The position numbers and the translations under genes are program-made. Under the pieces are notes generated by a model. That model made no database searches and was not told the origin of the DNA. It saw nothing but the letters and a program-made list of their open reading frames with translations. A DNA stretch of 64,000 nucleotides. Origin: a virus. Taxonomy: Duplodnaviria > Caudoviricetes. The stretch spans positions 32,001 through 96,000 of IMG/VR virus record IMGVR_UViG_3300014059_000006. One strand, given 5' to 3'. Below are positions 30,127 to 61,585 of this stretch, in pieces (the stretch's first letter is position 1; the number at the start of each line of letters is the position of its first letter).

Positions 30127-33100
30127 ATGCCAGATAATTTTTCGTCGTTTGCCAATAAAGTGGCACCTGTGACTTCTACCCCTTCTCGTTTAGGGACTGA
30201 AGGACTGGTAGCATGGAAAGATACAAACGCATCAAGATATACTAACGACCCTAATTGGAAAATGTTAGGGTATGACATGAACCGTAATAATGATTATGCG
30301 TACGATGTTGCTCAGACTTCGGGTCAATGGGCTAGTAGTGCTTTTAATAGATTTTTACACCCATTAAAAACTTCTTTTGTTGAAGGATTTCGTTATGATA
30401 AAACCGCTAAGGAATTATTGTTTAGTGGTAGTGTTGCCGAAGATGAAGGATTGAGAGAGTATTTAAAAAAATCTGAAGAACTTAGTTATTTATATCCTAC
30501 ATACGATAATCCTAATTCTAGTGACGAAGGGTTCTTCTCATATTTCAATGCGGGAGCTAGAAATAAATGGTCAACATTATTAGAAAGTTCTGGATTTATG
30601 GTGGGTACTGCGGGAGCAGGTATCGCACAATCTATTGTTTTAGGGCTTGTTACTGGTGGTGCGGGAACTGTTGCTTCGTTGGCTAAAACTGCAGACGCAA
30701 CCGGTAAAGCATACCGACTTTCCAAATTAGCCTCTGCCTATAAACAAATGGATAAGGTGAATGATTTGTGGAAAATGAGTAAAGTGGGAAAACTTGTAGG
30801 AGCTTCTCCCACATTACAAGCAATAGACGGATTGACAGATATCGCTAAAGCTAGAACACTCTCTCAATATGCAAAAGCATCTGGGAAATTCTTAGGAAAT
30901 AGTGCAATCAGATTTCAAGCTACTTCTAGTGAAGCAATGTTAGAAGCTATCGAAGGTTCAGAACATTTCAAAAAACAACAGATAGAACAGTTCGAATTAA
31001 AAAATGGAAGAGAAGCGACCAAGGAAGAAAAAGACGATATTGAAAATTACGCAGCAGATGTTTTCTCAGCTCGTTATCGTGCTAACTTAGGAGTGTTATC
31101 TGTTACAAATTTAGTACAGGATTTAAGTTTCTTTAATACTTATAAGTATATTTCGAAATTAGGAAAGAGTGGAGCAATAGCAGAAGAAGCTGCAAAAAAA
31201 TGGAATTGGAATGCTAAGGCTGGAATAGCTATGAAACATTCTGCACTCCCTCTTAAAGAGCGTGCCTTATTTGAAATAAAAGCTGTTGGTAATTCTTTTT
31301 TCAAAAACGCATTTATGGAAGGTGTAGAAGAAGGAGCGCAGTACGCAATAGGTAAATCTACAGATGATTATTATACTAAAAAATATAATAAAGAATCTGC
31401 TTCTTTTATGGATAGTATGGCTAGAGGAATTTCTTCTACATTCTTAGACAAAGAAGGTAAAGAAAGTTTTTGGAGTGGTATTATGATGGGCGGGTTGTTT
31501 TCAACAATAGGTAAAGGGGCTAAAACTGTTCATGGTATGGCTACAGGAAAAGGAGCAAAGATTGATGCTATGGTTTCTGAACAAATGACCAATTATAATC
31601 AAGCTCATAAAAACCTTATTGAAACATTTAAAACAGAACAAGTACTTTCAGCAGAAGCAGAAAACGGAACACTTAACCATGTGAACAATACTTTAGTCGA
31701 AGAGGCATTAGAAAATAATGACTTAGATAAAGCAAAAGAATTACGTTTACAATCATTAAGAAATTCAGTAAAAACTGCAAAAGAAGTTGGTAAGTTAGAC
31801 CTTCTTAAAAAAAGTTTATCAGAATATGGAGAATTACAAGACGATGTATTCAGAGAAAAATTTGGGGTAACTTCTAAACAAACCAATAAAGAAATTGTTA
31901 ATGAAACATTAAGAGAAATTGAAGAAATAGAAAAAACAGTGGATGCTGTTAACGAACGTTATGGTAATCCTTATGATGGGTATGATAATATAGACCCAAT
32001 AACAGCAGCAGACAAACGTGCAGAACAACATAATCTATACAAAGGATATGAGGAAGCCAAGATGACTGTTATAGACAATGTTGAAACATTAAAAGAATCT
32101 AAAAAGAATTTATCAAAGATTTCAGAATGGTTTACAGGACAGGGAGTAGTTGTAGAAGATGTATTATTAGAACTTGTTCCTGAACAGATTACATTAGGTG
32201 GGGTTGAGTTTGATAGTGCAGTTTTAGCTAGAGATGAAAAAATAGAAAATCTAGGTAGACAATTTGCAGATTTAGAAAAATTAAAACAAACCTCTACTAA
32301 TACAAGTGAAATTATAAGAGTAACACAAACTCAAGCAGAACTTTTAAAAGAACGAGATATATATGTAAATCTCAATAACAACCCTGATAGTTTAGGAGCA
32401 ATATTAGACTACTTTAATTTTCAAATAGGAAAATCTAAAAAAGGTCTTCCGATAGATGCGACAGATTCTACAGAATTCAAGACATCATTAGAAGAAAATA
32501 TAAAAGGACTGAGAGATAATTTAGAGAAATCTAAAAATGCTTTAGAAGCTTTAGACGCTTTAGAAAAACCTAAAGTGTTTGAGGCATTAGCTAAAGACTA
32601 TGCAAAAGCGTATGATAAACGTTATGGTCAAATTATAAGTGATTTAGATGCAAACGAACAGGAAGCAAAAGCGGCAACAGAAGAAGTTGTTCCTGAAGAA
32701 ACCCCCGAAGAAACAATCGGGACACCTGTGACACCAGAATCTCCTGTAGAAACTGCTACACCGATAGAACCCGAAGAAGGACCGATGTTTCCTATTCCTC
32801 CTTATACTCCTAAAGAAAGTACAAAGCCACAACCAAAACACGTACTATTACAAAAAATAGTACAAGTGGAAAAAGAATTAGATGAGATAACACACGTTAC
32901 AAATTCTCTTCTTTCTACAAAGGTTAGACTGACTAATTTATTACAAAAGGAAATTGCCGAATTAAAACCAGTGTTAGAAAAACTTGCTCGTACTGTTGTT
33001 GATAGTAACACAATGTACTTTATTTCTAACTATGAAGAATTGAGAGATGCTGAAATTCGTCTACAAGCTGATGTTGATAAGTTGACTGATGAATTAAATA

Positions 33101-36100
33101 TTGTTAGTGAAGAATTAGCTAGAGTAGAAAAAGTTCGTGATTATATAAGAAACAAGCTTACATACTACAATCAATTAAGAAAAGAACCGGGTATACGTTC
33201 TGTAAATTATGAAAATATTATATACGGAAAAATCCAATTGTTAGAAACAAAATTAAAGTTTCTAACAAGTTTAATCAATAAAGTTAAAAAAGCGATTAGT
33301 CGTATGATGGATGACTTACGTTATGTTACTGCACAACTAAGACAAAATGAAGCAGACATAATAAGCTATCCGTTAGATACCGAAGTTGATGCTGACTTAA
33401 CCACAAACAGAGAAAAACGTGCACCTTTACAACAAGAATTTACAAAACAAAAAAATAGAGTGAAGGCCCTTTCACGTACTGTAGAAAATACAAAAGATAC
33501 AATTGAGTATTTATATGATTTACTAGAGTGGGGAGAAAGAACTAATTCTGAAGAAATCGATACACCAATAGAAGAAATCAAAGCTCCAAAATTACAAACT
33601 CTAACAGATAATATTTCCAACGAAGAAAAAGAAAAATTAATAGAATCTAAAGAAGAACAGATAAAAAAAATAGATGAGTTAATACAACAAAAAACTGACG
33701 AAGTTTTAGGTGCTGACGGGGTTATAGCCGAAATCGAAAAAGAAGAAAGCTCTGCAACTCCTAATCAAGCACGTCTACAAGTGTTGTACGAGAAGCGTGA
33801 TAAGTTACAAAAAGAAACTGCAGCACTCGCTACAAAAAAAGAAATAGTTAAGAATAGATTTGGAAAAGAAATAGTAAAGGAGGAAAAATATATAATTGAT
33901 TCCCAAGACCAAGTACAGAATACATTAAAAGAAGATTTAGATGTATCTTCTAAAATTGTAAAGAGTGTTTACCTATCAGGACTACATTATGTTCAAACAG
34001 AAGATGGTAAATATTATGTTGTTCCAAATGTGTCAGAAGGTTCTAATGGTATAACATCTAAAGAAGTGACACAAGCTGAAATTATAAAACCTTTCAGAAC
34101 AAAAAAAGAATGGGACGAATTAGAAGTTAAAAAAGCTGATATAGAAAGAAGAAGACAAGAAGAATTAAACAATATAAAAAGTAAAGCAGAAATTGAAAAG
34201 TATTTTGCTAATAAATTTAAGAATGAATTCCCAAATGGAGTAAATGAAAGTGGTATTATTTCAATTCAAGAAGTATTAGAAAAATTACTTAATGAAGATG
34301 AACATAAACTTATTGAACAGTATAGATATTCAAATATACTTAAAGATAAAATCAATGCTAAATATGATGCAGAATATGTAGATGCTGTTAAGAAAGGAGA
34401 GATGACTAAAGAGCAAGCTATGCAAGCTCTTAAAGAAGTAGGAAGAAAAGATAGCAAAGCTTATGCTGAACTAGCTGCTTTAGAAGCTAAACCTGCTGTT
34501 ACACCTTCTGTTTCTGATAAGAAAGCTGAAATAGAAAAGAAAGCATACTTATTAAGTAAAGATTATAAAGATTTTGGTTGGCTAACAGAACAAGAAAAAA
34601 ACGACTATACAGAATCTCAAAACAATTCAAAAAACAGAGAAGAAAGAGAAAAAGCCTATATAAAATTAAGAGAATTATATAAGTTAAAAGTAGATAAAGA
34701 GTTTATAGATAGTATAGAAAAAGTACATTGGGTTAGAAATATTGAATCATTAATATCATTACTAGAAAAAGGAAAAAAAATACCTTTTGAAATATCAGCT
34801 GAGGGATACTTGAATGAGTCTTTTAAAAGTGGATGGGGTAATGGGGTAGGCATTAAACTAAAAGGTGAAACATTAATTGCATCTAATGAAGATTTAAGAA
34901 GTGATAACAAGTATGGTAGTATAGAAAACGGAGATTTTAGAAAATATTCATACGGAGACAATACATCCATAATATTAAATAAAGACACTTTTTTACCGCA
35001 CAGATTATTAGAATTTGAACAACGAGGTAAAAAATATCAAGGACACAATGAATTTTTATTAAAAAATAGTGAAATAGAAGCTATTGTTATTGACCCAACC
35101 AATGAAAAATTAACAGAAGAGTTTAAATCAGAGGTTGAGAATATAGCTAGAAAATTTGGAATACCTATAATTGTAAATACTAAATACGATGCTGAACTAG
35201 CTGCTTCAGAAGGCACTTCTACTCAAGCTCCTACAACAGCTACTGTTTCTAATATAGAAGCTAAAAAAGAAGATATAGAAAAAAGAAGACAAGAAATAAT
35301 ATCTAAATATAATATAGAGTTTAAGGAAATAGCTAGAAAACAATACGATAAGGTTTCTAAAAAATATATTGATGGTATATCTACTCAAATATGGAGTAAT
35401 GGTAAATTAATAGCAGAATATGAAACAAAAATAGAAGCAGAAAATGAACTAAATAGAAAAATAGATGCTTTAATAAATAACACTATTGATTCAAAAATTT
35501 CATTAGGAGATAATATTTTCATAGAAGGGATAACTGTTGATGGTAATACCTTTTCTGTTTTAAATACTTCTGAAAGAATGGTAACTATTGTTGACATAGG
35601 AGGTGTCAAAGTGCCCTTTTATTTAACAACAGGTTTGGGAGGTAAAAATTTAACACCTGCTTGGTATCCTATGTTTGGATATTCTCCTAGTGGATGGTTA
35701 AATAAAACTGATGGGAAAGATATGGAGTCTTTTTACTCTAGGATTATAGGAAAAGAAGCATCAGATGTATTAAAAAAAGTATCTGAAAAATTAAATAATA
35801 AATTAGGGGTAACTCCTAACTCTATAATTGAATCAGGGATAGTAAGTAAACAACAAACACAAGAAGCTGTAAATTCAGTTTTAAATTTTACTCCTGCTGA
35901 AAATCAAAAAATAGATGCTTCTGTTGATTATAAAATAGAACTTGCAAAACTTGAAAATAATATTAAAAGTCTTGGAGAAGAAATCAATGCTAAATATGAT
36001 GCAGAACTAAAAGCATTAAAACAACAATCTAATACACCTACTCAATCTGAAATAGAAGCTAAAAAAGCTGATATAGAAAGAAGAAGACAAGAAGAATTAA

Positions 36101-38892
36101 ATCAACAAACTGATGCTGGGTATTCAACTATTGCATTAGATTATCTATTTACAGGTGGAAGAGATGTAATTCTGTCTACTGATTATTTATTACAAGCATT
36201 AGTTGGTGGATTTACAAGTGCTGCTAAAGAAATAAATGATATTAGAAATAAATATGCTAATAAATTAGGTAATATTAGAGATGATATTAATTCTGATGTT
36301 TATAATCAAATGATGGGAGAAATTAGAAATGTTATAAGTAAAACTTATAATGATTCTAAAGCAAATGAAATATTTGATAAAATACTCAAAAATGCAACAG
36401 GATTTACAAATAGAGAAGGTAATCAAATAAGTATTGAGTTAGATAAATTAAATGAACAAAATGAATCTAAAATCAACGCTAAATATGATGCAGAACTAGC
36501 TGCTTTAGAAGAAGTAACACCTACAACAGAAACAAACCCTAATGTAGAAGCTAAAAAAGCTGATACAGAAAGAAGAAGACAGGAAGAATTAAATAAATAT
36601 AGGAATGATGCCATTGCTTTAGAAAATGCTAAAACAGAAGACGAAGCTATTGAAGCAATTAAATTGACAACTAAAGAAGATAATAAATGGAAAGCACTTT
36701 CCGCTGCCGAAAATATTATTGGAAAAAGTGGATTTAATGCTTTATTTCAACAAGATTGGAAAAAACAAACAAAAATACTTGCAGATGAAATTAATAGGAT
36801 TCAAGCTAATTTTATTGATAAAATAAATGCTAAATATGATGTAGAATTAGTTGCTTTAGAGACACCTATTTCTAAAATAGATTCTCCAGAAGTAGTTCAA
36901 TTAAAATCGGCTAAGAAAAGTTTAACACTTGAAATAGACACTTTAATGGAAGAACCTTCTACAGAAGTGTTAGATGTACCCTCTAACGAAAATAATGTCG
37001 TACAAGGGTTGTCAGGTAGTGAAATTAACAATTTGGCAACATCTATTATAAACTCTCCTAATGTTTTCTTTGCAGGAATGGTTTTTAGAACTGCCGGTGA
37101 AGATATGGTTAAACGTGGGGACACATTTACATTAATAAGTGAACGTTCACCGATTGGAATATTGCGTGCAAAAATTCGTAATGCAATTATGCGGCGTTCT
37201 ATAGGGTCTAGTAAAACTCTAAGTGATATAGGAATTCATATTACAATACAAAAAGATAAGGATGAGTTTCATCCCGAAGGAGAAACAGTTCGTGAACGTC
37301 AATTCTTTTTAGATAATAAAAACAAACCATCTCATCCTATCGTTGCTGTACTAACTGATATTAACGGCGAAACTTTATATTTTGATGAAGATGGAGACAA
37401 AACAACAAAAGAAAAAGGAACACCTATTGTACAACAGATTTTTGAAGTGGACGTTGATACTGCTTCACGAACATTACAAGGACGTAAAGAAGACCGTATT
37501 CAAGAACGTATACGTGTCCTAACTTTACAGAACTTATTCAGTGGTATAGAAATAACTCCTGAAGATACAAAACGTATAACTGACGAGGTGAATGAAGAAT
37601 TTAGAATGCTTTCTGAATTAAAATCTCACATAAGAAATACAGATGAAAAAATAACTGTAAATAACGCTTCAATATCAAGAGGATTTACAGAAAAAAATAA
37701 TATTGTTCTTGTACCAAATGACGCATTGGTTGATAAAGAAAACGCAAAGGTGAGTGTAGAAACTGTTACAATTAATAATGGTGGAACAAACGTAACAAAG
37801 GGTATTGTATATTACAACGGGTTTCCTATGTTCATGCCAAAGTTAAGTGAGGGTTCTTTGTTTGATACAATTAAAACAATTCTTCAAACAAGAGTTCCCT
37901 ATGATAGTTTCGAACGTTCTTCTCGTCAGGCATTTTTGAGAAAAATTTTATATCGTCGTACAGAAGAACATCCTAAAGCGGTGACAAAAGTTTCTTATGA
38001 TTACGAAAATGAAAAAATAGTGGTAATGTCGGGAGAACAGATTCTTTCATTAGAAGAACTTATGAGTAGAAATCTTTCATTAAACGTTGATAAACAATTG
38101 TTTGATGAAAATCAATCTTTTGTTGAATATGTAGCCAAACCGGAATTTAACGACAGGGATGAGAGAATGCCTAATATGAAATTAGTAGCTCTTCCTGCAG
38201 TTCCTTACCAAGATTATATAAAATCTAAAGGATATGTTTTTATGACAGAGTCAGAACTAGAGTCTCAGACTAAAAAATTAGGACCAACCCCTAGATACAA
38301 TATTGTATTTGGAATGAATCCTTCTGAAACAATGTCTAAAATAACTCCTGTTTCTACAGAAACATCTGCACCTAATCCCAATGATTTATTGTCTGTAGAT
38401 GACTTGTTAAGTGAAGAAACTACTCCTGAAGTGGGAACCGCTCTTCAAAACGCATTTGCTGTATTTACCGCACCGTCTACTCCTGCCCCAATAAAACAGT
38501 TTAATGTGGGAGATAAATTTAAACTACTGTCTAAATCTCTTTCTCAGGAAAAAGGTTCACCAGTGTATGTTGAAATAAAATTAATTGAAGAAATTCCTAA
38601 TACAGCAGAAGATGTAAAATTCTCAGTGGAGCAAACATACGAAGGAGTTTCTACAATGAGAACCTACAAAAGTAGTACTATCGAACAAGGACTGTCTGAC
38701 CCACTTGCTGAAAAATTAGAAAGTGCGGAAACATTAAACGTGTTTGATATGTTCACAGAAACAACCCCTATGGATGAAATTATGGATAGAGAATTAATAA
38801 AATCAGGTGTATTAAAAAAAGGAACTACAATGGAAGATTTGATAAATACATTAATAAGTCGTAATATTGTAGAAAAAATTTGTAAATTTTAA
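30127..38892 (+). CDS. Giant multidomain cargo/ejection protein, 2921 aa, carrying an internal cassette array
   Basis: N-terminal Gly/Ala-rich membrane-like segments (GFMVGTAGAGIAQSIVLGLVTGG), EGVEEGAQ motif, long coiled coils, repeat-flanked inserts, single Cys three residues from the end. Confidence 0.75.
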   Translation: MPDNFSSFANKVAPVTSTPSRLGTEGLVAWKDTNASRYTNDPNWKMLGYDMNRNNDYAYDVAQTSGQWASSAFNRFLHPLKTSFVEGFRYDKTAKELLFSGSVAEDEGLREYLKKSEELSYLYPTYDNPNSSDEGFFSYFNAGARNKWSTLLESSGFMVGTAGAGIAQSIVLGLVTGGAGTVASLAKTADATGKAYRLSKLASAYKQMDKVNDLWKMSKVGKLVGASPTLQAIDGLTDIAKARTLSQYAKASGKFLGNSAIRFQATSSEAMLEAIEGSEHFKKQQIEQFELKNGREATKEEKDDIENYAADVFSARYRANLGVLSVTNLVQDLSFFNTYKYISKLGKSGAIAEEAAKKWNWNAKAGIAMKHSALPLKERALFEIKAVGNSFFKNAFMEGVEEGAQYAIGKSTDDYYTKKYNKESASFMDSMARGISSTFLDKEGKESFWSGIMMGGLFSTIGKGAKTVHGMATGKGAKIDAMVSEQMTNYNQAHKNLIETFKTEQVLSAEAENGTLNHVNNTLVEEALENNDLDKAKELRLQSLRNSVKTAKEVGKLDLLKKSLSEYGELQDDVFREKFGVTSKQTNKEIVNETLREIEEIEKTVDAVNERYGNPYDGYDNIDPITAADKRAEQHNLYKGYEEAKMTVIDNVETLKESKKNLSKISEWFTGQGVVVEDVLLELVPEQITLGGVEFDSAVLARDEKIENLGRQFADLEKLKQTSTNTSEIIRVTQTQAELLKERDIYVNLNNNPDSLGAILDYFNFQIGKSKKGLPIDATDSTEFKTSLEENIKGLRDNLEKSKNALEALDALEKPKVFEALAKDYAKAYDKRYGQIISDLDANEQEAKAATEEVVPEETPEETIGTPVTPESPVETATPIEPEEGPMFPIPPYTPKESTKPQPKHVLLQKIVQVEKELDEITHVTNSLLSTKVRLTNLLQKEIAELKPVLEKLARTVVDSNTMYFISNYEELRDAEIRLQADVDKLTDELNIVSEELARVEKVRDYIRNKLTYYNQLRKEPGIRSVNYENIIYGKIQLLETKLKFLTSLINKVKKAISRMMDDLRYVTAQLRQNEADIISYPLDTEVDADLTTNREKRAPLQQEFTKQKNRVKALSRTVENTKDTIEYLYDLLEWGERTNSEEIDTPIEEIKAPKLQTLTDNISNEEKEKLIESKEEQIKKIDELIQQKTDEVLGADGVIAEIEKEESSATPNQARLQVLYEKRDKLQKETAALATKKEIVKNRFGKEIVKEEKYIIDSQDQVQNTLKEDLDVSSKIVKSVYLSGLHYVQTEDGKYYVVPNVSEGSNGITSKEVTQAEIIKPFRTKKEWDELEVKKADIERRRQEELNNIKSKAEIEKYFANKFKNEFPNGVNESGIISIQEVLEKLLNEDEHKLIEQYRYSNILKDKINAKYDAEYVDAVKKGEMTKEQAMQALKEVGRKDSKAYAELAALEAKPAVTPSVSDKKAEIEKKAYLLSKDYKDFGWLTEQEKNDYTESQNNSKNREEREKAYIKLRELYKLKVDKEFIDSIEKVHWVRNIESLISLLEKGKKIPFEISAEGYLNESFKSGWGNGVGIKLKGETLIASNEDLRSDNKYGSIENGDFRKYSYGDNTSIILNKDTFLPHRLLEFEQRGKKYQGHNEFLLKNSEIEAIVIDPTNEKLTEEFKSEVENIARKFGIPIIVNTKYDAELAASEGTSTQAPTTATVSNIEAKKEDIEKRRQEIISKYNIEFKEIARKQYDKVSKKYIDGISTQIWSNGKLIAEYETKIEAENELNRKIDALINNTIDSKISLGDNIFIEGITVDGNTFSVLNTSERMVTIVDIGGVKVPFYLTTGLGGKNLTPAWYPMFGYSPSGWLNKTDGKDMESFYSRIIGKEASDVLKKVSEKLNNKLGVTPNSIIESGIVSKQQTQEAVNSVLNFTPAENQKIDASVDYKIELAKLENNIKSLGEEINAKYDAELKALKQQSNTPTQSEIEAKKADIERRRQEELNQQTDAGYSTIALDYLFTGGRDVILSTDYLLQALVGGFTSAAKEINDIRNKYANKLGNIRDDINSDVYNQMMGEIRNVISKTYNDSKANEIFDKILKNATGFTNREGNQISIELDKLNEQNESKINAKYDAELAALEEVTPTTETNPNVEAKKADTERRRQEELNKYRNDAIALENAKTEDEAIEAIKLTTKEDNKWKALSAAENIIGKSGFNALFQQDWKKQTKILADEINRIQANFIDKINAKYDVELVALETPISKIDSPEVVQLKSAKKSLTLEIDTLMEEPSTEVLDVPSNENNVVQGLSGSEINNLATSIINSPNVFFAGMVFRTAGEDMVKRGDTFTLISERSPIGILRAKIRNAIMRRSIGSSKTLSDIGIHITIQKDKDEFHPEGETVRERQFFLDNKNKPSHPIVAVLTDINGETLYFDEDGDKTTKEKGTPIVQQIFEVDVDTASRTLQGRKEDRIQERIRVLTLQNLFSGIEITPEDTKRITDEVNEEFRMLSELKSHIRNTDEKITVNNASISRGFTEKNNIVLVPNDALVDKENAKVSVETVTINNGGTNVTKGIVYYNGFPMFMPKLSEGSLFDTIKTILQTRVPYDSFERSSRQAFLRKILYRRTEEHPKAVTKVSYDYENEKIVVMSGEQILSLEELMSRNLSLNVDKQLFDENQSFVEYVAKPEFNDRDERMPNMKLVALPAVPYQDYIKSKGYVFMTESELESQTKKLGPTPRYNIVFGMNPSETMSKITPVSTETSAPNPNDLLSVDDLLSEETTPEVGTALQNAFAVFTAPSTPAPIKQFNVGDKFKLLSKSLSQEKGSPVYVEIKLIEEIPNTAEDVKFSVEQTYEGVSTMRTYKSSTIEQGLSDPLAEKLESAETLNVFDMFTETTPMDEIMDRELIKSGVLKKGTTMEDLINTLISRNIVEKICKF
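34121..36861 (+). repeat. Array of five in-frame cassettes, each bounded by a left repeat (EAKKADIERRRQEELN) and a right repeat (KINAKYDAELAALE)
   Basis: Left copies at about 34121, 34516 (degenerate), 35254, 36052, 36544; right copies at about 34348 (split, completed at 34462), 35173, 35980, 36469, 36820; left copies 1 and 4 match at 48 of 49 nt. Confidence 0.9.
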
Positions 38893-47275: not shown

Positions 47276-47752
47276 ATGTTAGACTCAAAAATAATCGAAC
47301 TCCTAAATTATAGGATTGAACAAGAACAACTTTCTTCTCGTATTTATGAACAAATGTCAATGTTCTTAGGGAATAAGGGATATGTAAACACTGCGAAACT
47401 GTATGCAAAGTATGCATCAGAAGAATTAAGTCATGCTGAATGGGCTAAAACCTATCTTCTTTCTTATAACATAGAACCAGAACTACATCCCCTTCCTGCA
47501 CCTACAACAGAGTATTCAACATTACAGGAGGTGTTAGATTTAACATTAGAACATGAAATGGATATTACTAAACAATGTAACGAGTTAGCAAGAATTGCAC
47601 AAGAAATGGCATACTTCACATGTTTTGATTTAGCTCTTAAATACTGTAGAGAACAAGTGGAAGAAATAGATAAGGCATATACATTGAAAGATATGTATGC
47701 ACTTTCTAATAATGACTTGTTATTTGACCACGCTGTAGAAGACCTTATATAA
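47276..47752 (+). CDS. Non-heme ferritin (FtnA-like)
   Basis: LLN-x-x-I-x-x-E-x-x-SS-x-x-Y-x-x-MS, EE-x-x-HA, LEHE-x-x-IT and EQVEE ferroxidase-centre pattern; 158 aa. Confidence 0.85.
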   Translation: MLDSKIIELLNYRIEQEQLSSRIYEQMSMFLGNKGYVNTAKLYAKYASEELSHAEWAKTYLLSYNIEPELHPLPAPTTEYSTLQEVLDLTLEHEMDITKQCNELARIAQEMAYFTCFDLALKYCREQVEEIDKAYTLKDMYALSNNDLLFDHAVEDLI

Positions 47753-53877: not shown

Positions 53878-56800
53878 ATGTCAACAAACTTTAACTCTAT
53901 ACGTAATCAAATCATTTCTTTATTTGGAAAAGAATGGGGAGCTAATTTAATTACAATTCTTGAAAACTATTGTTCAGACCCTTTTGATGGATGTAGTGGA
54001 ATTCGCGATTGTGAAACATTAACATCAATATCGTTTGAAGATGGGACACTTACGTTCGTCGATGAACATGGTGACGAAACTGTATTAGAAATAACAGGTA
54101 CTTCAGGACTTTCGGGATTTTCAGGAGCAAACGGTTCGTTAGGTGTTTCTGGTATTTCGGGGTTTTCTGGGTTTTCAGGATTCAGTGGAGCATCCGGTAC
54201 ATACGGAAGGTCGGGATTTTCGGGTGCCTCTGGTACATCGGGATTCTCAGGAACATCTGGTTTAAATGGTTTTGGGACTTCAGGATTTTCAGGAACATCT
54301 GGTAAATCAGGATTTTCCGGAACTTCTGGACTTTCTGGTTTTTCAGGAACAGGAGTTTCTGGGGTTTCTGGATATTCCGGAATTTCAGGAATAAACGGAA
54401 GTTCTGGAGTGAGTGGGTATTCAGGAATTTCAGGATTCTCTGGAACTTCAGGATTTAGTGGAATAGGAATCTCAGGGTATTCGGGTGTGTCTGGAATAGG
54501 AACATCAGGGTTTTCGGGGGTCTCTGGGTTTTCAGGTGTTTCTGGTTTCTCAGGATTTTCAGGATTCAGTGGAGTGTCGGGATTTTCGGGAGTTAGTGGA
54601 TTTAGTGGAGAAGGTTCTTCAGGTATATCTGGTATATCAGGATTTTCAGGGACCTCTGGATATTCAGGAAAATCTGGATTTTCAGGTTCTAATGGAGACC
54701 GATATGCAACTTTTTCAACAACATCAAATTCTCCAGCAAATGGAAGTAAATCTTTTACTGTTGAAACAGGACTGGCTTGGACAGCAGGACAGAGTATAAA
54801 AGTAGTGAGGACATCTGCACCATCTACAGAATATATGATTGGTAACGTTACCTCATATAATAGTGGAACAGGGGCTATGGTTATAAATGTAACTTCTTCA
54901 GCTACAGCAGGAGGAGGTCCTTTTACAGATTGGACTTTAAACCTTGATGGAACTGCGGGGGTAGCGGGTGCTTCTGGAACTTCGGGTTTTTCAGGGTTAG
55001 ACGGAACTAGTGGAGTAAGCGGGTTTTCTGGAAAGTCTGGATTTAGTGGGACAAGTGGTTTTTCTGGTACATCGGGATTTTCAGGTACGAGTGGAACTTC
55101 AGGGTTCTCAGGAGTATCCGGATTTTCAGGAATAAGTGGAAAATCAGGATTTTCAGGATTCTCAGGAACGTCTGGGTTTTCAGGTACATCTGGTTTTTCT
55201 GGATTCTCAGGAGTTAGTGGAATAGGTACATCAGGATTTAGCGGGACTTCTGGATTTTCTGGAACGTCTGGATTCAGTGGCACTAGTGGAGCAGTAGGGG
55301 CTACAGGTTTTACAGGAACTTCTGGATTTTCTGGATTTTCAGGAAAAAGTGGATATTCCGGATTAGATGGACAAAGTGGTCATTCAGGAACATCAGGATT
55401 TAGTGGTATAGGAACATCGGGATTCAGTGGTGTATCTGGATTTAGTGGAATAAGCGGATTCTCAGGGACATCTGGATTCTCTGGGACATCGGGATATAGT
55501 GGAACTTCCGGTTTTTCTGGAGCAAGTGGGACTTCGGGATTTTCAGGGACTTCTGGATTCTCGGGAACTTCTGGATTCTCTGGGACATCGGGAACATCTG
55601 GGATAGGTACATCGGGATTTTCGGGAACAAGCGGATTCTCCGGAACTTCGGGATATAGTGGTACTTCTGGAATTTCAGGAATTTCTGGATTTTCAGGGGT
55701 GAATGGCGACTTATATGCTACATCATCATCGTCTTCAAATTCAATAGGTACGGGTTCTAAAAGTTTCACAGTATCTACAGGATTAGCTTGGACTGCGGGA
55801 CAGAGTATTCGTGTAGTAGATACTGCTGCACCAACTACAAATTATTTAATAGGTACGGTTACTTCTTATAATTCTGGGACTGGTGCAATGGTTATAAATG
55901 TAACCACTACAGGAGGGTCTGGTACATATACATCTTGGAATCTAAACTTAGATGGTACTGTAGGGGTTGCGGGAGCATCAGGTGTTTCCGGTTTTAGTGG
56001 AGTGAGTGGATTTTCAGGAATTTCTGGGTATTCGGGTACATCAGGATTTAGTGGGGTTTCCGGTTTCAGTGGTACATCAGGTTTTTCAGGAACTTCAGGG
56101 TTTAGTGGAACATCTGGTTTTAGTGGTACGTCAGGATACAGTGGATTCTCAGGAACATCTGGGTATAGTGGAACTAATGGTGCAACAGGTAGTTCAGGAA
56201 CTTCAGGATTTTCTGGGGTTTCTGGATTCAGTGGTGTATCAGGATTCTCCGGTACATCTGGGTTTTCGGGAGTTTCAGGATTTAGTGGAATAAGTGGATA
56301 TTCCGGGGCTATAGGTATATCAGGTGCGTCTGGTTTTTCAGGTGCAACTGGGGCAGCAGGAACTTCGGGGTTCTCAGGAGTTTCGGGATATAGTGGATTC
56401 AGTGGGTTTAGTGGTGTATCTGGGTTTTCTGGAACAAGTGGATACTCAGGAACAAATGGACTTTCTGGAACTTCAGGGTTCAGTGGTACTAGTGGTTTTA
56501 GTGGTACATCAGGAGCAACCGGTTTCTCAGGAAGGTCTGGAACTTCTGGTTTTTCAGGTACAAGTGGAACCTCTGGATTTTCAGGAGTTAGTGGTTTTAG
56601 TGGTACATCAGGGACTAGTGGATTTAGTGGAACAAGTGGATTTTCTGGAACATCTGGGTATTCAGGGACATCCGGGTTTAGTGGATATTCAGGTTTTAGT
56701 GGAATATCTGGATTTTCGGGTGCTAATGGAGATTTATATGCAACATCTTCTTCTACGTCTAACACAATAGGAACAGGGAGTAAATCATTTACCGTAGACC

Positions 56801-59205
56801 CGGGATTAGCATGGACAGCAGGACAATCGATACGAATTGTAGACACTGCGGCACCTTCTACTAATTACATGATAGGTGTTGTTACATCGTATAACCCCGG
56901 AACAGGAGCGATGGTAATAAATGTTACATCGTCTGCTGGTTCAGGAACATTTACCTCATGGGATTTAAATTTAGACGGTACTCCGGGTATAACAGGAGAT
57001 AGTGGTTTTTCTGGATATTCCGGTAAGAGTGGATATAGTGGAGTTAGTGGATTCAGTGGAACCTCTGGATTTTCTGGAACTTCAGGAACAAGTGGGTTTA
57101 GTGGAACGTCGGGATTCAGTGGAGTTAGTGGTACTTCCGGTTTCAGTGGTGTAAGCGGATTCTCTGGAACTTCAGGATTTAGTGGAATAGGTACTAGTGG
57201 ATTTAGTGGGACTTCTGGGTTCTCTGGAACATCTGGATTCTCCGGAACATCTGGATATAGTGGGGTTTCAGGCTTCTCAGGAACTTCAGGAACTTCGGGA
57301 TTCTCGGGATATTCTGGCGTTAGTGGATTTTCTGGAACAAGTGGTACAAGCGGTTTTCCCGGAACAACAGGAACTTCTGGGTTTTCCGGAGTAAGTGGGT
57401 TTAGTGGATTAGATGGTACATCTGGATACAGTGGAGTTTCCGGTTTTTCAGGAACATCTGGATTCAGTGGTGTTAGTGGTATAGGAATTAGTGGATTCTC
57501 AGGAACTTCGGGATATTCTGGAACTTCGGGATTTTCTGGTACATCAGGTTTTTCGGGAACTTCTGGTTTCTCAGGAGTTAGTGGATATTCCGGAACTTCT
57601 GGCTTTAGTGGAACTAGTGGAACTAGTGGGATAGGTACAAGTGGATTCTCAGGAACGTCTGGATTTAGTGGAACTTCTGGAACATCCGGAGTAAATGGAG
57701 ATAGATATGCTACATCTTCGGGGTCTACCAATTCTATAGGAACAGGTTCTAAAACATTTATAGTCGCTACTGGTTTGGCTTGGACTGCCGGTCAAACTAT
57801 AAAAGCAGTTGATTCTGCAAATCCAACTGTAAATTATTTAATTGGAACTGTTACTTCATATGTTACAGGTACAGGTAATATGGTTATAAATGTTACAAGT
57901 ACTGGTGGAAGTGGTTCTTATTCTTCATGGAATTTAAATCTTGATGGTACAGTTGGTGTTGCCGGTGCTTCTGGTGTTAGCGGGTACTCAGGAACGAGTG
58001 GGTTCTCGGGAACGAGTGGATTTAGCGGATTTAGTGGTACAAGTGGATATAGTGGGGTGAGTGGATTTAGCGGAGTAAGTGGTTTTAGTGGAGTGAATGG
58101 AGCAAGTGGTGTAAGTGGATTTTCCGGAGTGAGTGGATTTAGTGGAGCATCAGGAACATCTGGATTTAGTGGTATAGGAACATCGGGATTCAGTGGTGTA
58201 TCTGGGTTTAGTGGAACAAGCGGATTCTCTGGAGCATCCGGTTTTAGTGGATTTAGTGGAATTTCAGGATACAGTGGTACGTCAGGATTTAGTGGTACGT
58301 CAGGGTTCTCAGGAACAAGTGGTGTTAACGGAACATCTGGATTCTCAGGATTCTCTGGTGTTTCTGGATATAGTGGGTCTTCGGGTTTTTCGGGTGTGTC
58401 TGGATTCAGTGGAACAAGCGGATTTTCAGGATTTAGTGGAGTAAGTGGATTCTCTGGTGTAAACGGAACTTCAGGATTTTCAGGAACAAGTGGATTTAGT
58501 GGTGTTAGTGGATTTTCAGGTACTTCCGGTTATAGTGGATTTAGTGGATTTAGCGGAACAAGTGGGATAAGTGGATTAAGTGGGGCAGCTCCTTCGATTC
58601 CAAAATCTACTATTGCCACTGTATTTGAAGATTCACAACGTTTTACTGTAGCTGCTACGGGTACAACTAATTTCTCAACAGGTTTGGGATTATTTATGGA
58701 CACTAATGTTTCAATTTCTGAAAATATTGTTACAACTCAAGCCTCAGGTAATAAAAATTGTTATTTAGGTAGCCCTACATTTACAACATCATTGGATTTT
58801 TATTCGGGAACAACCAATACACAAATTTATTTAGGTATGGGAGAAATAGGTGTTACAGGAATAGGTGGACATGTATTTACTGATTCACATATAGGATTTA
58901 AGATTGTAGATAATGCAGGTAGTCATACATTATATGCTACACAAGCAAATGGTACAACTGAAACATCTTCTATTTTAACTACATTGTCAACAGGAGATTT
59001 TTTAGATTTATATTTTGTAATGAATGCTTCATTAAATGTTAAATATTATTATAGAATTAATGGAGGAAATATAAGTTCAGCTACAACTTTGACAACAAAT
59101 ATTCCTTCTGTTGCAGAAAATAAATGGTTTGTTGCATCGAATAGTAGTGCTAGTGCTACAGGAGCCTCTATTGTTTATATTAATCATGCTTCGTACTCAA
59201 GATAA
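53878..59205 (+). CDS. Giant (Ser-Gly-X)n repeat fibre protein with four repeated globular domains and a C-terminal beta domain, 1775 aa
   Basis: Five tracts of SG(F/T/V/Y/I) triplets separated by four ~85-aa repeats (GD(R/L)YAT...GSK-x-F-x-V-x-x-GLAWTAGQ...LNLDGT). Confidence 0.8.
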   Translation: MSTNFNSIRNQIISLFGKEWGANLITILENYCSDPFDGCSGIRDCETLTSISFEDGTLTFVDEHGDETVLEITGTSGLSGFSGANGSLGVSGISGFSGFSGFSGASGTYGRSGFSGASGTSGFSGTSGLNGFGTSGFSGTSGKSGFSGTSGLSGFSGTGVSGVSGYSGISGINGSSGVSGYSGISGFSGTSGFSGIGISGYSGVSGIGTSGFSGVSGFSGVSGFSGFSGFSGVSGFSGVSGFSGEGSSGISGISGFSGTSGYSGKSGFSGSNGDRYATFSTTSNSPANGSKSFTVETGLAWTAGQSIKVVRTSAPSTEYMIGNVTSYNSGTGAMVINVTSSATAGGGPFTDWTLNLDGTAGVAGASGTSGFSGLDGTSGVSGFSGKSGFSGTSGFSGTSGFSGTSGTSGFSGVSGFSGISGKSGFSGFSGTSGFSGTSGFSGFSGVSGIGTSGFSGTSGFSGTSGFSGTSGAVGATGFTGTSGFSGFSGKSGYSGLDGQSGHSGTSGFSGIGTSGFSGVSGFSGISGFSGTSGFSGTSGYSGTSGFSGASGTSGFSGTSGFSGTSGFSGTSGTSGIGTSGFSGTSGFSGTSGYSGTSGISGISGFSGVNGDLYATSSSSSNSIGTGSKSFTVSTGLAWTAGQSIRVVDTAAPTTNYLIGTVTSYNSGTGAMVINVTTTGGSGTYTSWNLNLDGTVGVAGASGVSGFSGVSGFSGISGYSGTSGFSGVSGFSGTSGFSGTSGFSGTSGFSGTSGYSGFSGTSGYSGTNGATGSSGTSGFSGVSGFSGVSGFSGTSGFSGVSGFSGISGYSGAIGISGASGFSGATGAAGTSGFSGVSGYSGFSGFSGVSGFSGTSGYSGTNGLSGTSGFSGTSGFSGTSGATGFSGRSGTSGFSGTSGTSGFSGVSGFSGTSGTSGFSGTSGFSGTSGYSGTSGFSGYSGFSGISGFSGANGDLYATSSSTSNTIGTGSKSFTVDPGLAWTAGQSIRIVDTAAPSTNYMIGVVTSYNPGTGAMVINVTSSAGSGTFTSWDLNLDGTPGITGDSGFSGYSGKSGYSGVSGFSGTSGFSGTSGTSGFSGTSGFSGVSGTSGFSGVSGFSGTSGFSGIGTSGFSGTSGFSGTSGFSGTSGYSGVSGFSGTSGTSGFSGYSGVSGFSGTSGTSGFPGTTGTSGFSGVSGFSGLDGTSGYSGVSGFSGTSGFSGVSGIGISGFSGTSGYSGTSGFSGTSGFSGTSGFSGVSGYSGTSGFSGTSGTSGIGTSGFSGTSGFSGTSGTSGVNGDRYATSSGSTNSIGTGSKTFIVATGLAWTAGQTIKAVDSANPTVNYLIGTVTSYVTGTGNMVINVTSTGGSGSYSSWNLNLDGTVGVAGASGVSGYSGTSGFSGTSGFSGFSGTSGYSGVSGFSGVSGFSGVNGASGVSGFSGVSGFSGASGTSGFSGIGTSGFSGVSGFSGTSGFSGASGFSGFSGISGYSGTSGFSGTSGFSGTSGVNGTSGFSGFSGVSGYSGSSGFSGVSGFSGTSGFSGFSGVSGFSGVNGTSGFSGTSGFSGVSGFSGTSGYSGFSGFSGTSGISGLSGAAPSIPKSTIATVFEDSQRFTVAATGTTNFSTGLGLFMDTNVSISENIVTTQASGNKNCYLGSPTFTTSLDFYSGTTNTQIYLGMGEIGVTGIGGHVFTDSHIGFKIVDNAGSHTLYATQANGTTETSSILTTLSTGDFLDLYFVMNASLNVKYYYRINGGNISSATTLTTNIPSVAENKWFVASNSSASATGASIVYINHASYSR
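54097..58584 (+). repeat. Degenerate 9-nt-period coding repeat (Ser-Gly-X) with four dispersed ~255-nt domain repeats
   Basis: Domain repeats start at about 54691, 55702, 56725 and 57694; synonymous codons are scrambled (TCA/TCT/TCG/TCC/AGT/AGC; GGA/GGT/GGG). Confidence 0.9.
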
Positions 59206-59247: not shown

Positions 59248-59922
59248 ATGAATAGTAATGTACTCCCGTCTTCATATGAATTATACTCTCATACAAAAAT
59301 ATGTGGGATATACAAAATAACCTCTCCTTCGGGAAGGATTTATATTGGTAGTTCTAAAAACATTTATAAAAGATGGTATAGGTATGGGCACGAAAGTATA
59401 AAAAATCAAATTAAATTGTCTAACTCCATTCAAAAATACGGTTGGGCATCTCACACTTTTGAAATATTAGAGGAATGTGAAACTAATAAACTTTATTCCC
59501 TTGAAAGAGCTTGGGGAGATTTTTATAGTGTGATTACTACAGGATTGAATTGTCAATTACCCGGTAAAGAATCTATAAAACCCTGTATTTCAGAAGAAAC
59601 TAGACAAAAAATAAGAATAAAAGCTACTGGAAGAGTTGTTTCAGAAGAAACAAGAAATAAACTTAGTTTAGCAAAAAAAGGTAAAAAATTATCATTGGAA
59701 CATGTTGAAAAAATAAGAAATAATAGTAAAGGTAAAAAAATGTCAGAGGAAGCTCGAGAAAAAATTATCCTAAACTTATCTAAAATTATTTTAGACACTT
59801 CTACAGGAGTTTTTTATAACTCTGTTAAGGAAGCGGCAAATTATTTTAATATAAATTATTCGACTTTGAGGTCAATGTTACAAGGAAAAAATAAAAATAA
59901 AACAAACTTAATATATGCTTAA
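59248..59922 (+). CDS. Free-standing GIY-YIG homing endonuclease with NUMOD3 repeats and C-terminal NUMOD1/HTH
   Basis: CGIYKIT...IYIGSS...RW...FEILEE...GLNC; SEETRQKI, SEETRNKL and SEEAREKI repeats; YNSVKEAANYF. Confidence 0.92.
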   Translation: MNSNVLPSSYELYSHTKICGIYKITSPSGRIYIGSSKNIYKRWYRYGHESIKNQIKLSNSIQKYGWASHTFEILEECETNKLYSLERAWGDFYSVITTGLNCQLPGKESIKPCISEETRQKIRIKATGRVVSEETRNKLSLAKKGKKLSLEHVEKIRNNSKGKKMSEEAREKIILNLSKIILDTSTGVFYNSVKEAANYFNINYSTLRSMLQGKNKNKTNLIYA

Positions 59923-61585
59923 TTATGAAAACATAGGGGGCTGGTTCAGTCCGAAAGATGTGGAAACGTATCGTCGACTTATAGATTATCTACCAGATAA
60001 TAGTGTTATATGTGAACTCGGTTCTTGGAAAGGACGTAGTATATGTTCTGTAGCAGATATTATACTTAAAAAAAATCTTTTTGTAAATATTGTAGACACA
60101 TTTGAAGGTACAGAAAATGAAGGAGATGCTCACAAAGAAGCTAAACAAGTAGATTTATGTAAAGAGTTTTTTGAAACAACTGCTAAATTCGGATTAGATA
60201 AAGCAAATTTAGTAGTTTATAAGTGTACTACTGACGAAGCTTTTGAAAAATTTAAAGAACTAAAACATTTAAAATTTGATTTTATTTTTATAGATGCTGA
60301 CCATTCTACAGAAGCAGTTACTAAAGACATTCAAAATTATTCGCAATTATTAAGAAATGAAAACTCAATACTTGCCGGTCACGACCTTTCGTGGCAATCT
60401 GTTCAAAAAGCTATAGAAAATTGTATTGAAGATATCAATACAATGACTCATAACGGAGAGAATCTATGGTGGTTCGAACCTCAGAAAGTCACATATAAAA
60501 AAAATATTTCTACAAATTTTAATGGTGTAACAGCAGTTGTATGTACAAAAGATAGATATCCACAACTATATAACACTCTTCTTTGTATTCAAAGCCAAAG
60601 GATTTCTCCTAAAGACTTGTTTATTTATGATGATAGTGATAATAAAATAGATATAAAAAACATATACGAATGGCAATCGTTGTGGAATATGTTAGAAACT
60701 CGAGGAATTAATGTTGTTTATAAACCAACTAATAATCACGGACAAAATAAAAATCATCAAGATTCAGTAATAACTGCAACAACTAAATATATATGGAGAG
60801 TGGATGACGATTTAATATTTGGACCCAATGTGCTGTATGAATTATTTTCAACAATATCATTGTCTCCTAAAATAGGTGCTGTTGGTCCAAGAGTATCTAT
60901 GCCAAATAACAACACAGTATTTGAACAAGTTTCAGGAAAAATGCAAGACATTTTTACTAAACCAGGAATACAATTAAGCATAAGTGGAGAAGGGCAACAC
61001 GAAGTAGAACATCTTCATTGTACTTTTTTATATGATAGGACATTAGGTGCTTCTTACCATCCTGATTTATCTCAAGTTGGTCATAGAGAAGAAACTATAT
61101 TTAGTCATAATATATTCAAATTGGGATACAAACTCATTGTAGATTTAAATGTAAATGTTTTTCATTTAAAATGTCCTTCCGGTGGAATACGTAGTGAACA
61201 AATGACTGCAGAAATGTTTGTAAGTGATGAACATAAATTCAAAGATTACTTAAACGATGTAACAGTTGTAGAAGAAAATGTTCCTGCCAAACTCCCTTTT
61301 TATTATTTAAATAATGGAATAGGCGACCATTTAGCTTTTAAACAACTTCTTCCTGAATTATTTTTAACTTCAGATAATTTACTTATTGCATGCGTTTATC
61401 CTGAAGTATTTTGGGATATTCAAAATATACAAATTATTTCATTAGAAGAAGGAAAAAAAATTATAGCAGAACGCGGAGAAACAGAAAAAGATTATTCGGT
61501 ATACGAAGTGATGCAAAATTCTGAAAAAGAATTTAGAGGAAACGGTAATTACATATTACAAGCGTATCGTAAATTGTATTTATAA
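59915..61585 (+). CDS. Fusion of class I SAM methyltransferase, GT2 glycosyltransferase and GT9-like N-terminal domain
   Basis: ELGSWKGRS, VDTF, FDFIFIDADH and GHD (methyltransferase); VVCTKDR, IYDD and RVDDD (GT-A fold); NNGIGDHL (GT9/heptosyltransferase-like N-domain). Confidence 0.8.
   Translation: MLNYENIGGWFSPKDVETYRRLIDYLPDNSVICELGSWKGRSICSVADIILKKNLFVNIVDTFEGTENEGDAHKEAKQVDLCKEFFETTAKFGLDKANLVVYKCTTDEAFEKFKELKHLKFDFIFIDADHSTEAVTKDIQNYSQLLRNENSILAGHDLSWQSVQKAIENCIEDINTMTHNGENLWWFEPQKVTYKKNISTNFNGVTAVVCTKDRYPQLYNTLLCIQSQRISPKDLFIYDDSDNKIDIKNIYEWQSLWNMLETRGINVVYKPTNNHGQNKNHQDSVITATTKYIWRVDDDLIFGPNVLYELFSTISLSPKIGAVGPRVSMPNNNTVFEQVSGKMQDIFTKPGIQLSISGEGQHEVEHLHCTFLYDRTLGASYHPDLSQVGHREETIFSHNIFKLGYKLIVDLNVNVFHLKCPSGGIRSEQMTAEMFVSDEHKFKDYLNDVTVVEENVPAKLPFYYLNNGIGDHLAFKQLLPELFLTSDNLLIACVYPEVFWDIQNIQIISLEEGKKIIAERGETEKDYSVYEVMQNSEKEFRGNGNYILQAYRKLYL

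Follow-up and report, generated by a model that had tools for sequence, protein, structure and literature searches.

A tandem array of five domain cassettes bounded by codon-conserved motifs in a giant protein of an uncultivated wastewater phage

We analysed a stretch of viral DNA of 64,000 nucleotides (nt), hereafter the window, which spans positions 32,001 to 96,000 of IMG/VR virus record IMGVR_UViG_3300014059_000006. The full record is 107.9 kb in length, is about 88% complete and comes from an uncultivated phage in wastewater. The window contains a giant open reading frame (ORF), P0001, in which five unrelated payload domains stand in tandem, each between a left motif (L) and a right motif (R). 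A protein of 916 amino acids (aa) matched the portal protein gp20 of PhicrAss001 (7QOG, E 6e-16), and a major head protein and a virion structural protein were also recognised in the window; by sequence, the source phage is crAss-like. Downstream of the portal and head genes lies a block of giant ORFs of 624, 912, 2921, 2792, 1537 and 1775 aa, of which P0001 is the third, and the 2792-aa ORF starts 2 nt past the P0001 stop codon. Within the whole 107.9-kb genome, the L and R motifs are confined to the P0001 gene. In this study, P0001 and similar labels denote proteins, L005 and similar labels denote viral loci or contigs, and L1-L5 and R1-R5 denote the brackets in P0001. Positions of the features are summarized in Table 1.

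The five cassettes occupy aa 1331-2245 of P0001. Each consists of a left helix L KKADIERRRQEEL, a payload and a right helix R INAKYDAELAALE, with L preceding R in the same frame around an insert that varies from pair to pair. Four left motifs start at aa 1333, 1711, 1977 and 2141 and show 0-5 mismatches with EAKKADIERRRQEELN. The fifth is a decayed copy, DKKAEIEKKAYLL, at aa 1464-1478; cassettes homologous to this second cassette in P0003, P0005 and P0006 retain a clear L. The right motifs start at aa 1408, 1682, 1952, 2115 and 2232. R1 is broken after KINAKYDAE by an insert of 32 aa, and LAALE resumes at aa 1449. This long variant of R recurs in 13 other giant proteins, and the insert could form a small independent module. 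Linkers of 10-15 aa, rich in Thr and Pro, join the cassettes. At the DNA level, the repeat at 34117-34169 is 96% identical to that at 36049-36101 over 53 nt, and a second family, AAATCAAYGCTAAATATGATGCAGAA, recurs at 34349, 35981, 36470 and 36821. A sequence-only reading of the window had proposed such an array, with five payloads between left and right motifs, Thr/Pro linkers and motif repeats conserved in the DNA. Both the layout, with one L decayed and one R split, and the DNA repeats were borne out.

Table 1 Features of the P0001 gene and of neighbouring genes in the window.
Feature	Positions	Strand	Description
Giant ORF P0001	30127..38892	+	2921 aa; in giant-gene block downstream of head and tail genes
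Conserved N-terminal module	30160..32676	+	aa 12-850; common to many other L/R-bearing giant proteins
Hydrophobic Gly/Ala-rich segment	30592..30678	+	aa 156-184; Kyte-Doolittle maximum 1.72 over 19 aa
L1, left bracket of cassette 1	34123..34170	+	1 mismatch; 32.3 bits with the hidden Markov model (HMM)
Payload 1	34171..34347	+	59 aa; no homologue among the sequences retrieved
R1, right bracket	34348..34485	+	Split by conserved 32-aa insert YVDAVKKGEMTKEQAMQALKEVGRKDSKAYAE, then LAALE
R1 insert	34375..34470	+	32 aa; YVDAVKKGEMTKEQAMQALEEVGRKDSxAYAE
L2, decayed left bracket	34516..34560	+	DKKAEIEKKAYLLSK; weak HMM match, 6.0 bits
Payload 2	34561..35169	+	~203 aa; ~75% identical to bracketed payloads in P0003 and P0005-P0009
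R2	35170..35211	+	Motif match
L3	35257..35304	+	Motif match
Payload 3	35305..35979	+	225 aa; long helix, then beta-rich core in AlphaFold2 (AF2) model, predicted local distance difference test (pLDDT) 84
R3	35980..36021	+	Motif match
L4	36055..36102	+	Exact consensus
Payload 4	36103..36468	+	122 aa; predicted all-helical
R4	36469..36510	+	Exact consensus
L5	36547..36594	+	Motif match
Payload 5	36595..36819	+	75 aa; predicted helical; no homologue among the sequences retrieved
R5	36820..36861	+	Motif match
C-terminal region	36862..38892	+	Common only to orthologue P0027, 30% identity
Portal-like protein	1490-4240		916 aa
Ferritin-like protein	47276-47752	+	158 aa; PF00210, E 1.5e-16
Collagen triple-helix repeat protein	53878-59205	+	1775 aa; PF01391, 13 stretches, E 2e-146
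GIY-YIG and NUMOD homing-endonuclease-like gene	59248-59922	+	
Methyltransferase-glycosyltransferase fusion	59915-61585		Follows the GIY-YIG gene

We searched for relatives of the array using a word-indexed protein search with aa 1320-2250 of P0001 as the query. The search retrieved 87 giant proteins of 1.6-4.7 thousand aa, which resemble single pieces of the array with identities of 25-94%; polyvalent-protein domains are present in some of them. A profile was built from an alignment of 30 short cassettes, in which the only conserved parts are ADIERRRQEEL and INAKYDAELAALE, and was searched against 1.84 billion representatives. At E<=1e-3, it matched 436 clusters, with P0001 obtaining the top score (six stretches). 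HMMs of L and R were then run on the 87 giant proteins, on the ORFs of 80 viral contigs obtained with an R-linker-L probe, and on 148 matches of the profile search.

The two motifs follow a strict grammar. Across 313 giant proteins and ORFs, adjacent motifs were L then R in 353 cases and R then L in 86, whereas two successive L motifs occurred 18 times and two R motifs 7 times. The first motif was L in 290 of the 313. The median gap from R to the following L was 10 aa, and the R-to-L linkers ranged from 1 to 18 aa with variable sequences. The 182 cassettes in the first two sets were grouped into 95 payload clusters at the BLAST level. Payload lengths ranged from 19 to 342 aa, including near-empty hairpins with loops of 19-26 aa (one such hairpin, of 56 aa, lies at L024:6031-6198), and the number of cassettes per protein ranged from 1 to 7. 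Multi-cassette arrays were found in the independent assemblies of P0003, P0069, P0089 and P0157. Two catalogued domains coincide with payloads: ART-PolyVal (aa 1963-2077 of P0006) lies exactly between the L and R of cassette 1931-2103, and an AAA_33 P-loop kinase domain (aa 1804-1896 of P0012) lies within cassette 1555-1928. Among the 50,697 deposited phage genomes of INPHARED, neither the array nor an R-linker-L junction had a match in DNA or protein.

A complete gene of 246 aa, P0088 (L171:370-1110), is made solely of two L/R cassettes. Small genes surround it on its contig of 6.7 kb, and it may serve as a free donor of cassettes. P0005 (4471 aa), which shares cassettes 1 and 2, is encoded in a similar giant-gene block on L172, a JGI contig of 120 kb, with a GIY-YIG gene immediately downstream and a neighbour of 3809 aa of the helicase/kinase polyvalent type.

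The payloads of P0001 showed no mutual relatedness by BLASTP or hhalign apart from one marginal match, between payload 1 and the C-terminal part of payload 3 (45 aa, E 4e-4). Their secondary structures also differ in the AF2 models, in which payload 4 is all-helical and payload 3 has a beta-rich core. The core of payload 3 carries the invariant signature VPFY...WYP.FG...GW.NK and has no Pfam model. Its family was found at 77 viral loci, where 4 members are bracketed, about 14 are free ORFs (~180-250 aa) and the rest are unbracketed within giant ORFs; by sequence, the core is an autonomous, widespread phage domain. Free ORFs of about 180 aa that consist of this core (VPFYLSTG...GKWYPFFGIG.DGW.NK) were observed on L120, L121, L124, L126, L131 and other loci. 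The predicted fold of payload 3 matched segments of "structural proteins" of the Cellulophaga phages phi14:2 and phi4:1. Its similarity to actin-like/Volactin clusters in the ESM Atlas (score 0.78) fell below the trusted level and was rejected. Payload 2 matched only unnamed clusters in the ESM Atlas. Payload 4 belongs to the commonest payload family seen (24 distinct sequences); it matched no solved fold, and a Foldseek search of the cassette 4+5 model against PDB gave no match at E<=0.001.

P0001 and its relatives differ in the number and order of cassettes. The closest orthologue, P0027, shares the N-terminal module (44% identity) and the C-terminal region. At the site of the array, it has one recognisable cassette, of the payload-4 type, and a different domain lies ahead of it. 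Between cassette 4 and its counterparts in P0004, P0011 and P0013, identity is 85-94%, whereas the N-termini of these proteins are only about 22% identical. Cassette 3 shows 87-94% identity to proteins without other similarity. The order of cassettes is permuted between proteins, being c1-c0 in P0001 and c0-c1 in P0004, and c3-c21 in P0003 and c21-c3 in P0005. P0003 also carries an identical tandem duplicate cassette.

The boundaries of shared DNA coincide with the brackets. When the window was aligned with L005, the only homologous segment was 36054-36511, which corresponds exactly to L4 through R4 (458 nt, 90.6%). In six more independent locus pairs (L014/L084, L017/L090, L046/L086, L060/L053, L052/L061 and L044/L019), the block of homology was one cassette, within 0-16 nt, and in five of the six the cassette was the sole alignable DNA in about 12 kb. 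Contigs 99% identical at the nt level to cassette 2 were found in two further studies of 2025, on wastewater and activated sludge. There, a different linker and then an L motif follow, and cassette 3 is absent. In public sequencing runs, large depth peaks occurred at the bins containing L and R, and unlike flanks started at the motif edges. We infer that recombination caused this pattern of exchange.

The sequence-only reading had proposed to look for such results, namely orthologues with differing inserts, variable cassette order, motifs flanking other domains (about 95 payload families in other proteins), and near-identical payloads in otherwise divergent proteins. It had also held that the payloads are unrelated domains and that the DNA repeats act as recombination handles; the former agrees with the BLASTP, hhalign and secondary structure comparisons, and the latter is supported by the comparative DNA evidence. 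The outcomes that it named as speaking against it, such as orthologues all carrying the same inserts in the same order, payloads being diverged copies of one domain, or motifs found around no other domains, were all looked for, and none refuted it.

We compared the codons in the motifs with those expected from codon usage. Within the P0001 gene, the L copies share codons at 15 of 16 sites against 9.7 expected (P ~0.002), and the R copies are mostly within the codon-usage expectation. Across phages, the expectation was calculated from each ORF's own codon usage, using viral contigs of 22-45% GC. The consensus codon was used in 445 of 502 cases in L (333 expected, z 11.6) and in 566 of 692 cases in R (415 expected, z 13.3). 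The rare Ile codon ATC appeared in 36 of 53 cases against 5.6 expected. Codon choices were specific to the position, with Ala encoded by GCT at R position 3 and by GCA at R position 7, and cannot be produced by any single codon table. Where P0001 and another ORF have the same residue, the codon was also the same in a fraction of 0.48 for the N-terminus, 0.65 for the payloads and 0.83 for the motifs. As a control, the invariant residues of the payload-3 family gave 0.56 against 0.54 expected (z 1.8). A sequence within 4 mismatches of the 49-nt L4 of the window was present at 35 of 86 viral loci, and one within 4 mismatches of the 42-nt R4 at 55 of 86. The array (34117-36861) also differs from the rest of the gene in composition: CGT accounts for 0 of 33 Arg codons against 37 of 79 elsewhere in the gene, and the GC content is 27.7% against 32-34%. 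This suggests that the array cassettes came from a lower-GC gene pool.

The structure of the bracket was modelled with AF2 using an alignment of 23 rows for cassettes 4+5 and one of 42 rows for cassette 3; for cassettes 2 and 3, MAFFT alignments against full-length giant proteins were discarded, and sub-range references from viral loci were used instead. The model of cassettes 4+5 is all helical, with a mean pLDDT of 81.6 and values of 90-97 across cassette 4, in which L lies in helix 8-26 and R within helix 130-165. VIA structural alignment of the cassette 4 model against PDB returned many small contiguous two-helix hairpins (42-61 aligned residues, root-mean-square deviation 1.9-4.7), including ribosomal L29, BRAF BRS, Rabenosyn-5 and the SIP N-domain. 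These matches span model residues ~3-171 yet align about 50-60 residues, from the terminal helices alone. The payload is skipped, and therefore the N- and C-terminal helices are placed side by side in the model. This lends indirect support to an antiparallel two-helix stalk formed by L and R, as the sequence-only reading had suggested. In the cassette 3 model (pLDDT 84.1), L runs on as a helix of 87 residues, followed by the beta-rich core and a 34-residue helix that contains R. A VIA search with this model was dominated by the 87-residue helix and was uninformative on the beta core. Complex prediction with L4 and R4 as separate chains gave a score of 0.18 against a mark of 0.34 and was counted neither way. 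An RNA or DNA hairpin between L and R was set aside, as the two sequences, judged by eye, are not complementary.

The observed grammar and spread of the brackets, the diversity of payloads, the homology bounded by cassettes and the conservation at synonymous sites are best explained, with a probability of about 0.68, if P0001 is a polyvalent-type giant virion protein carrying a string of five cassettes, whose brackets serve both as a hairpin socket in the protein and as in-frame homology arms in the DNA. In each cassette, L would be an N-terminal helix of about 20 aa and R a C-terminal helix of 14-35 aa, with the payload between them. Going by the model, L and R would zip into an antiparallel two-helix hairpin that draws the ends of the payload together, so that nearly any autonomous domain, or a mere loop, could fit at its tip, and the flexible Thr/Pro linkers would string the cassettes like beads. 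The L and R segments of 40-50 nt, near-identical between cassettes and divergent phages, would act as the homology arms during co-infection, when homologous recombination could exchange cassettes. A double crossover in L and R would replace a payload, and unequal crossover between copies of L or of R would remove cassettes, duplicate them or change their order. Arms of 40-50 nt are within the range used by phage single-strand-annealing recombinases.

Several observations weigh against this explanation. No direct recombination event, circle or deletion junction was seen in the contigs from the public runs, where joints were not scored as recombination events as the contigs are short, branch at repeats and mostly have <31 nt on one side. 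Most proteins carry a single cassette: among the 148 profile matches listed, 127 had one, 16 had two and 4 had three. Domains also occur without brackets in the same proteins, for example Kinase-PolyVal in P0060 (a domain also present in P0037) and most payload-3 homologues. No functional assignment was obtained for the five P0001 payloads using Pfam, Foldseek and the ESM Atlas; they may act in anti-defence or host takeover. The pairing of L with R comes from one AF2 model, read via alignment ranges, and in the cassette 3 model L continues into the 87-residue helix, which may or may not pack against R. Finally, the charged exposed residues of L and R (RRRQEE and NAKYDAE) are nearly invariant, which could reflect a protein function of the hairpin instead of, or besides, a constraint on the DNA.

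This last point leads to the alternative in which the hairpin itself is functional, in docking, packaging, oligomerisation or nucleic-acid binding, the segment between L and R is a tolerant loop, and the DNA conservation reflects a recent spread of the module. Besides the invariant charged residues, the near-empty hairpins and the prevalence of one copy per protein, at a roughly similar position, fit this idea. However, the payloads include autonomous domains that are also found unbracketed or free-standing, and selection on the protein leaves unexplained the position-specific synonymous conservation that is absent in the control family. We regard it as unlikely, though it is compatible with the socket-and-arm explanation and does not exclude it. 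The exposed flexible linkers between conserved elements could also be seen as sites for a maturation protease, which would cut the giant protein at R-linker-L junctions, inside the head or once ejected, and so release separate effector domains; polyvalent proteins have been suggested to undergo autoproteolytic processing (PMC5512222). The linkers, however, vary in both length and sequence and have no conserved cleavage motif, most proteins have a single L...R pair and hence no R-L junction, no peptidase domain was detected in P0001 by Pfam, and the synonymous conservation would again go unexplained, making this account quite improbable.

The order of the five cassettes could, in part, be an assembly chimera, if short reads from co-occurring phages were joined through the shared 40-50-nt repeats. 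Contigs in all four public runs break or branch at L and R, the k-mers there are common to many unrelated contigs, and the composition of the array differs from that of the remaining gene. Nevertheless, the source study includes a second sample, whose contigs cover the flanks and most of the array with 100% identity and an even depth of 5.5-7.8, except that one listed contig in cassette 4 (36072-36216) has 6 differences. Contigs also bridge R1 into payload 2, R2-L3 into payload 3, R4-linker-L5, and R5 into the C-terminal part. As the exact repeats are shorter than ~45 nt, and thus than the reads, and multi-cassette arrays recur in the independent assemblies noted above, we consider a chimera improbable. 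An ordinary intragenic tandem repeat, with five diverged copies of one ancestral domain, would account for flanking motifs repeated within one gene. It has a negligible chance of being correct, given payloads of 59-225 aa with no detectable similarity and differing secondary structure, and the same brackets around ~95 families in other phages.

No Pfam hit above threshold, no PHROG and no PDB sequence match was found for P0001, and the PDB sequence search gave no match for the neighbouring 2792-aa ORF or for a profile of the P0001 N-terminus. One haemagglutinin match (E 3.6e-4) in the Pfam, PHROGs and PDB searches of P0001, its neighbour and the N-terminal profile was taken as spurious. Apart from P0027, the N-terminal module is 20-28% identical to that of dozens of other giant proteins. 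Seven of 18 aligned members match phrog_32390, a PHROG without assigned function, and the sole match to the P0001 N-terminus among the INPHARED genomes is a hypothetical protein of a Leptolyngbya phage. The only strongly hydrophobic segment in P0001, at aa 156-184, is a possible membrane-inserting helix by analogy; the PhicrAss001 cargo protein gp45 has a predicted N-terminal transmembrane helix (PMC10172136). Packaging and ejection of P0001 are plausible because of its synteny with the PhicrAss001 cargo genes, its gp45-like N-terminal hydrophobic segment, and the polyvalent domains in its relatives.

In PhicrAss001, gp45-gp50 are cargo and RNA polymerase-associated proteins, which are giant and mostly helical, are encoded downstream of the tail genes, are packaged, and are believed to leave the virion in a partly unfolded state (Bayfield et al. 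2023, PMC10172136). P0001 resembles them in its position in the giant-gene block, in a phage with a portal homologous to gp20. In contrast, its sequence matched no solved chain, although most of the proteins gp45-gp50 and phi14:2 gp66 have no solved chains, and no bracketed cassettes have been reported for PhicrAss001. Polyvalent proteins contain 2-15 domains, are encoded by phages or conjugative elements, and have been proposed to enter the host together with the DNA (PMC5512222). They are giant multidomain phage proteins with highly variable architectures (Iyer et al. 2017, PMC5512222), and the sequence-only reading had drawn this likeness. P0001, at 2921 aa, has at least 5 distinct inserted domains in addition to its N- and C-terminal modules, and domain architecture is highly mosaic among its relatives. 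No catalogued polyvalent domain (ART-PolyVal, Kinase-PolyVal, MuF, ArdC, LPD and others) was found in P0001 above the Pfam threshold, but relatives that share its cassettes carry ART-PolyVal, Kinase-PolyVal, NADAR, cpYpsA, helicase and GNAT domains. Polyvalent proteins appear to have no described two-sided bracket ("linker" and "coiled" are absent from the text of PMC5512222), whereas here a codon-conserved helix pair delimits the units. The units in P0001 can also be set against other exchangeable systems.

In polymorphic toxin systems, the boundary is one-sided and precedes a single C-terminal toxin, which is accompanied by an immunity gene. The brackets in P0001, unlike this boundary, are two-sided, internal (aa 1331-2245 of 2921) and in tandem; no immunity gene lies directly downstream, where the next gene is the 2792-aa ORF, and the bracket-bearing protein is a phage virion-type protein. 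The likeness to CdiA and Rhs is a conserved peptide and DNA motif at the boundary of domains swapped by homologous recombination, as is generally held (see also PMC5512222). Such systems may keep spare cassettes elsewhere, for which the free two-cassette gene P0088 offers a parallel. In T-even tail fibres, short conserved coding motifs (His boxes of gp37 and glycine-rich motifs of gp38) reportedly flank hypervariable segments and probably guide recombination. They sit inside a single fold and alter receptor specificity, whereas here whole unrelated domains would be exchanged on a hairpin in a presumed internal cargo protein. Integron gene cassettes and Borrelia vls are arrays of exchangeable units bounded by conserved repeats. 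Their repeats bound whole genes or silent donors and need an integrase or dedicated conversion; in P0001 the repeats are translated, in frame, and would be part of the fold.

Other genes in the window were also observed. The ferritin-like protein is encoded between giants of the presumed cargo block, which is unusual there. The collagen-repeat gene has a GC content of 42%, against about 31% around it, and the long antisense ORFs over it are probably a by-product of the GXY repeats. The fusion gene comes directly after the homing-endonuclease-like gene (Table 1).

Polyvalent proteins and motif-guided cassette swapping, in polymorphic toxins and T-even adhesins, are already known. We found no prior description of a fixed two-sided helical bracket, conserved at the codon level and arranged in tandem in-frame arrays in hundreds of clusters of phage proteins, when checking Pfam, PHROGs, the genomes of deposited phages and the part of the literature that could be searched. 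The near-invariance of the exposed residues may partly be a by-product of the constraint on the DNA. More tentatively, and at somewhat less than even odds, L and R could constitute a pan-phage standard for in-frame exchange, a "protein-domain integron", in which the arms are kept identical across many uncultivated crAss-like phages to swap pre-packaged effector domains of ejected cargo proteins, the hairpin makes any incoming domain structurally tolerable, and the near-invariance of the peptides follows for the most part from selection acting on the DNA.

If the socket-and-arm explanation is true, a large group of environmental phages shares a plug-in socket for domains that probably reach the host before gene expression begins, which would explain the rapid diversification of polyvalent and cargo proteins. 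The L...R sequence rule would allow hundreds of candidate effector and anti-defence domains to be harvested from metagenomes, and the brackets would provide a natural scaffold with homology arms for displaying and swapping domains in engineered phage proteins. It would also be an uncommon example of a protein motif that appears to owe its form to selection on DNA identity.

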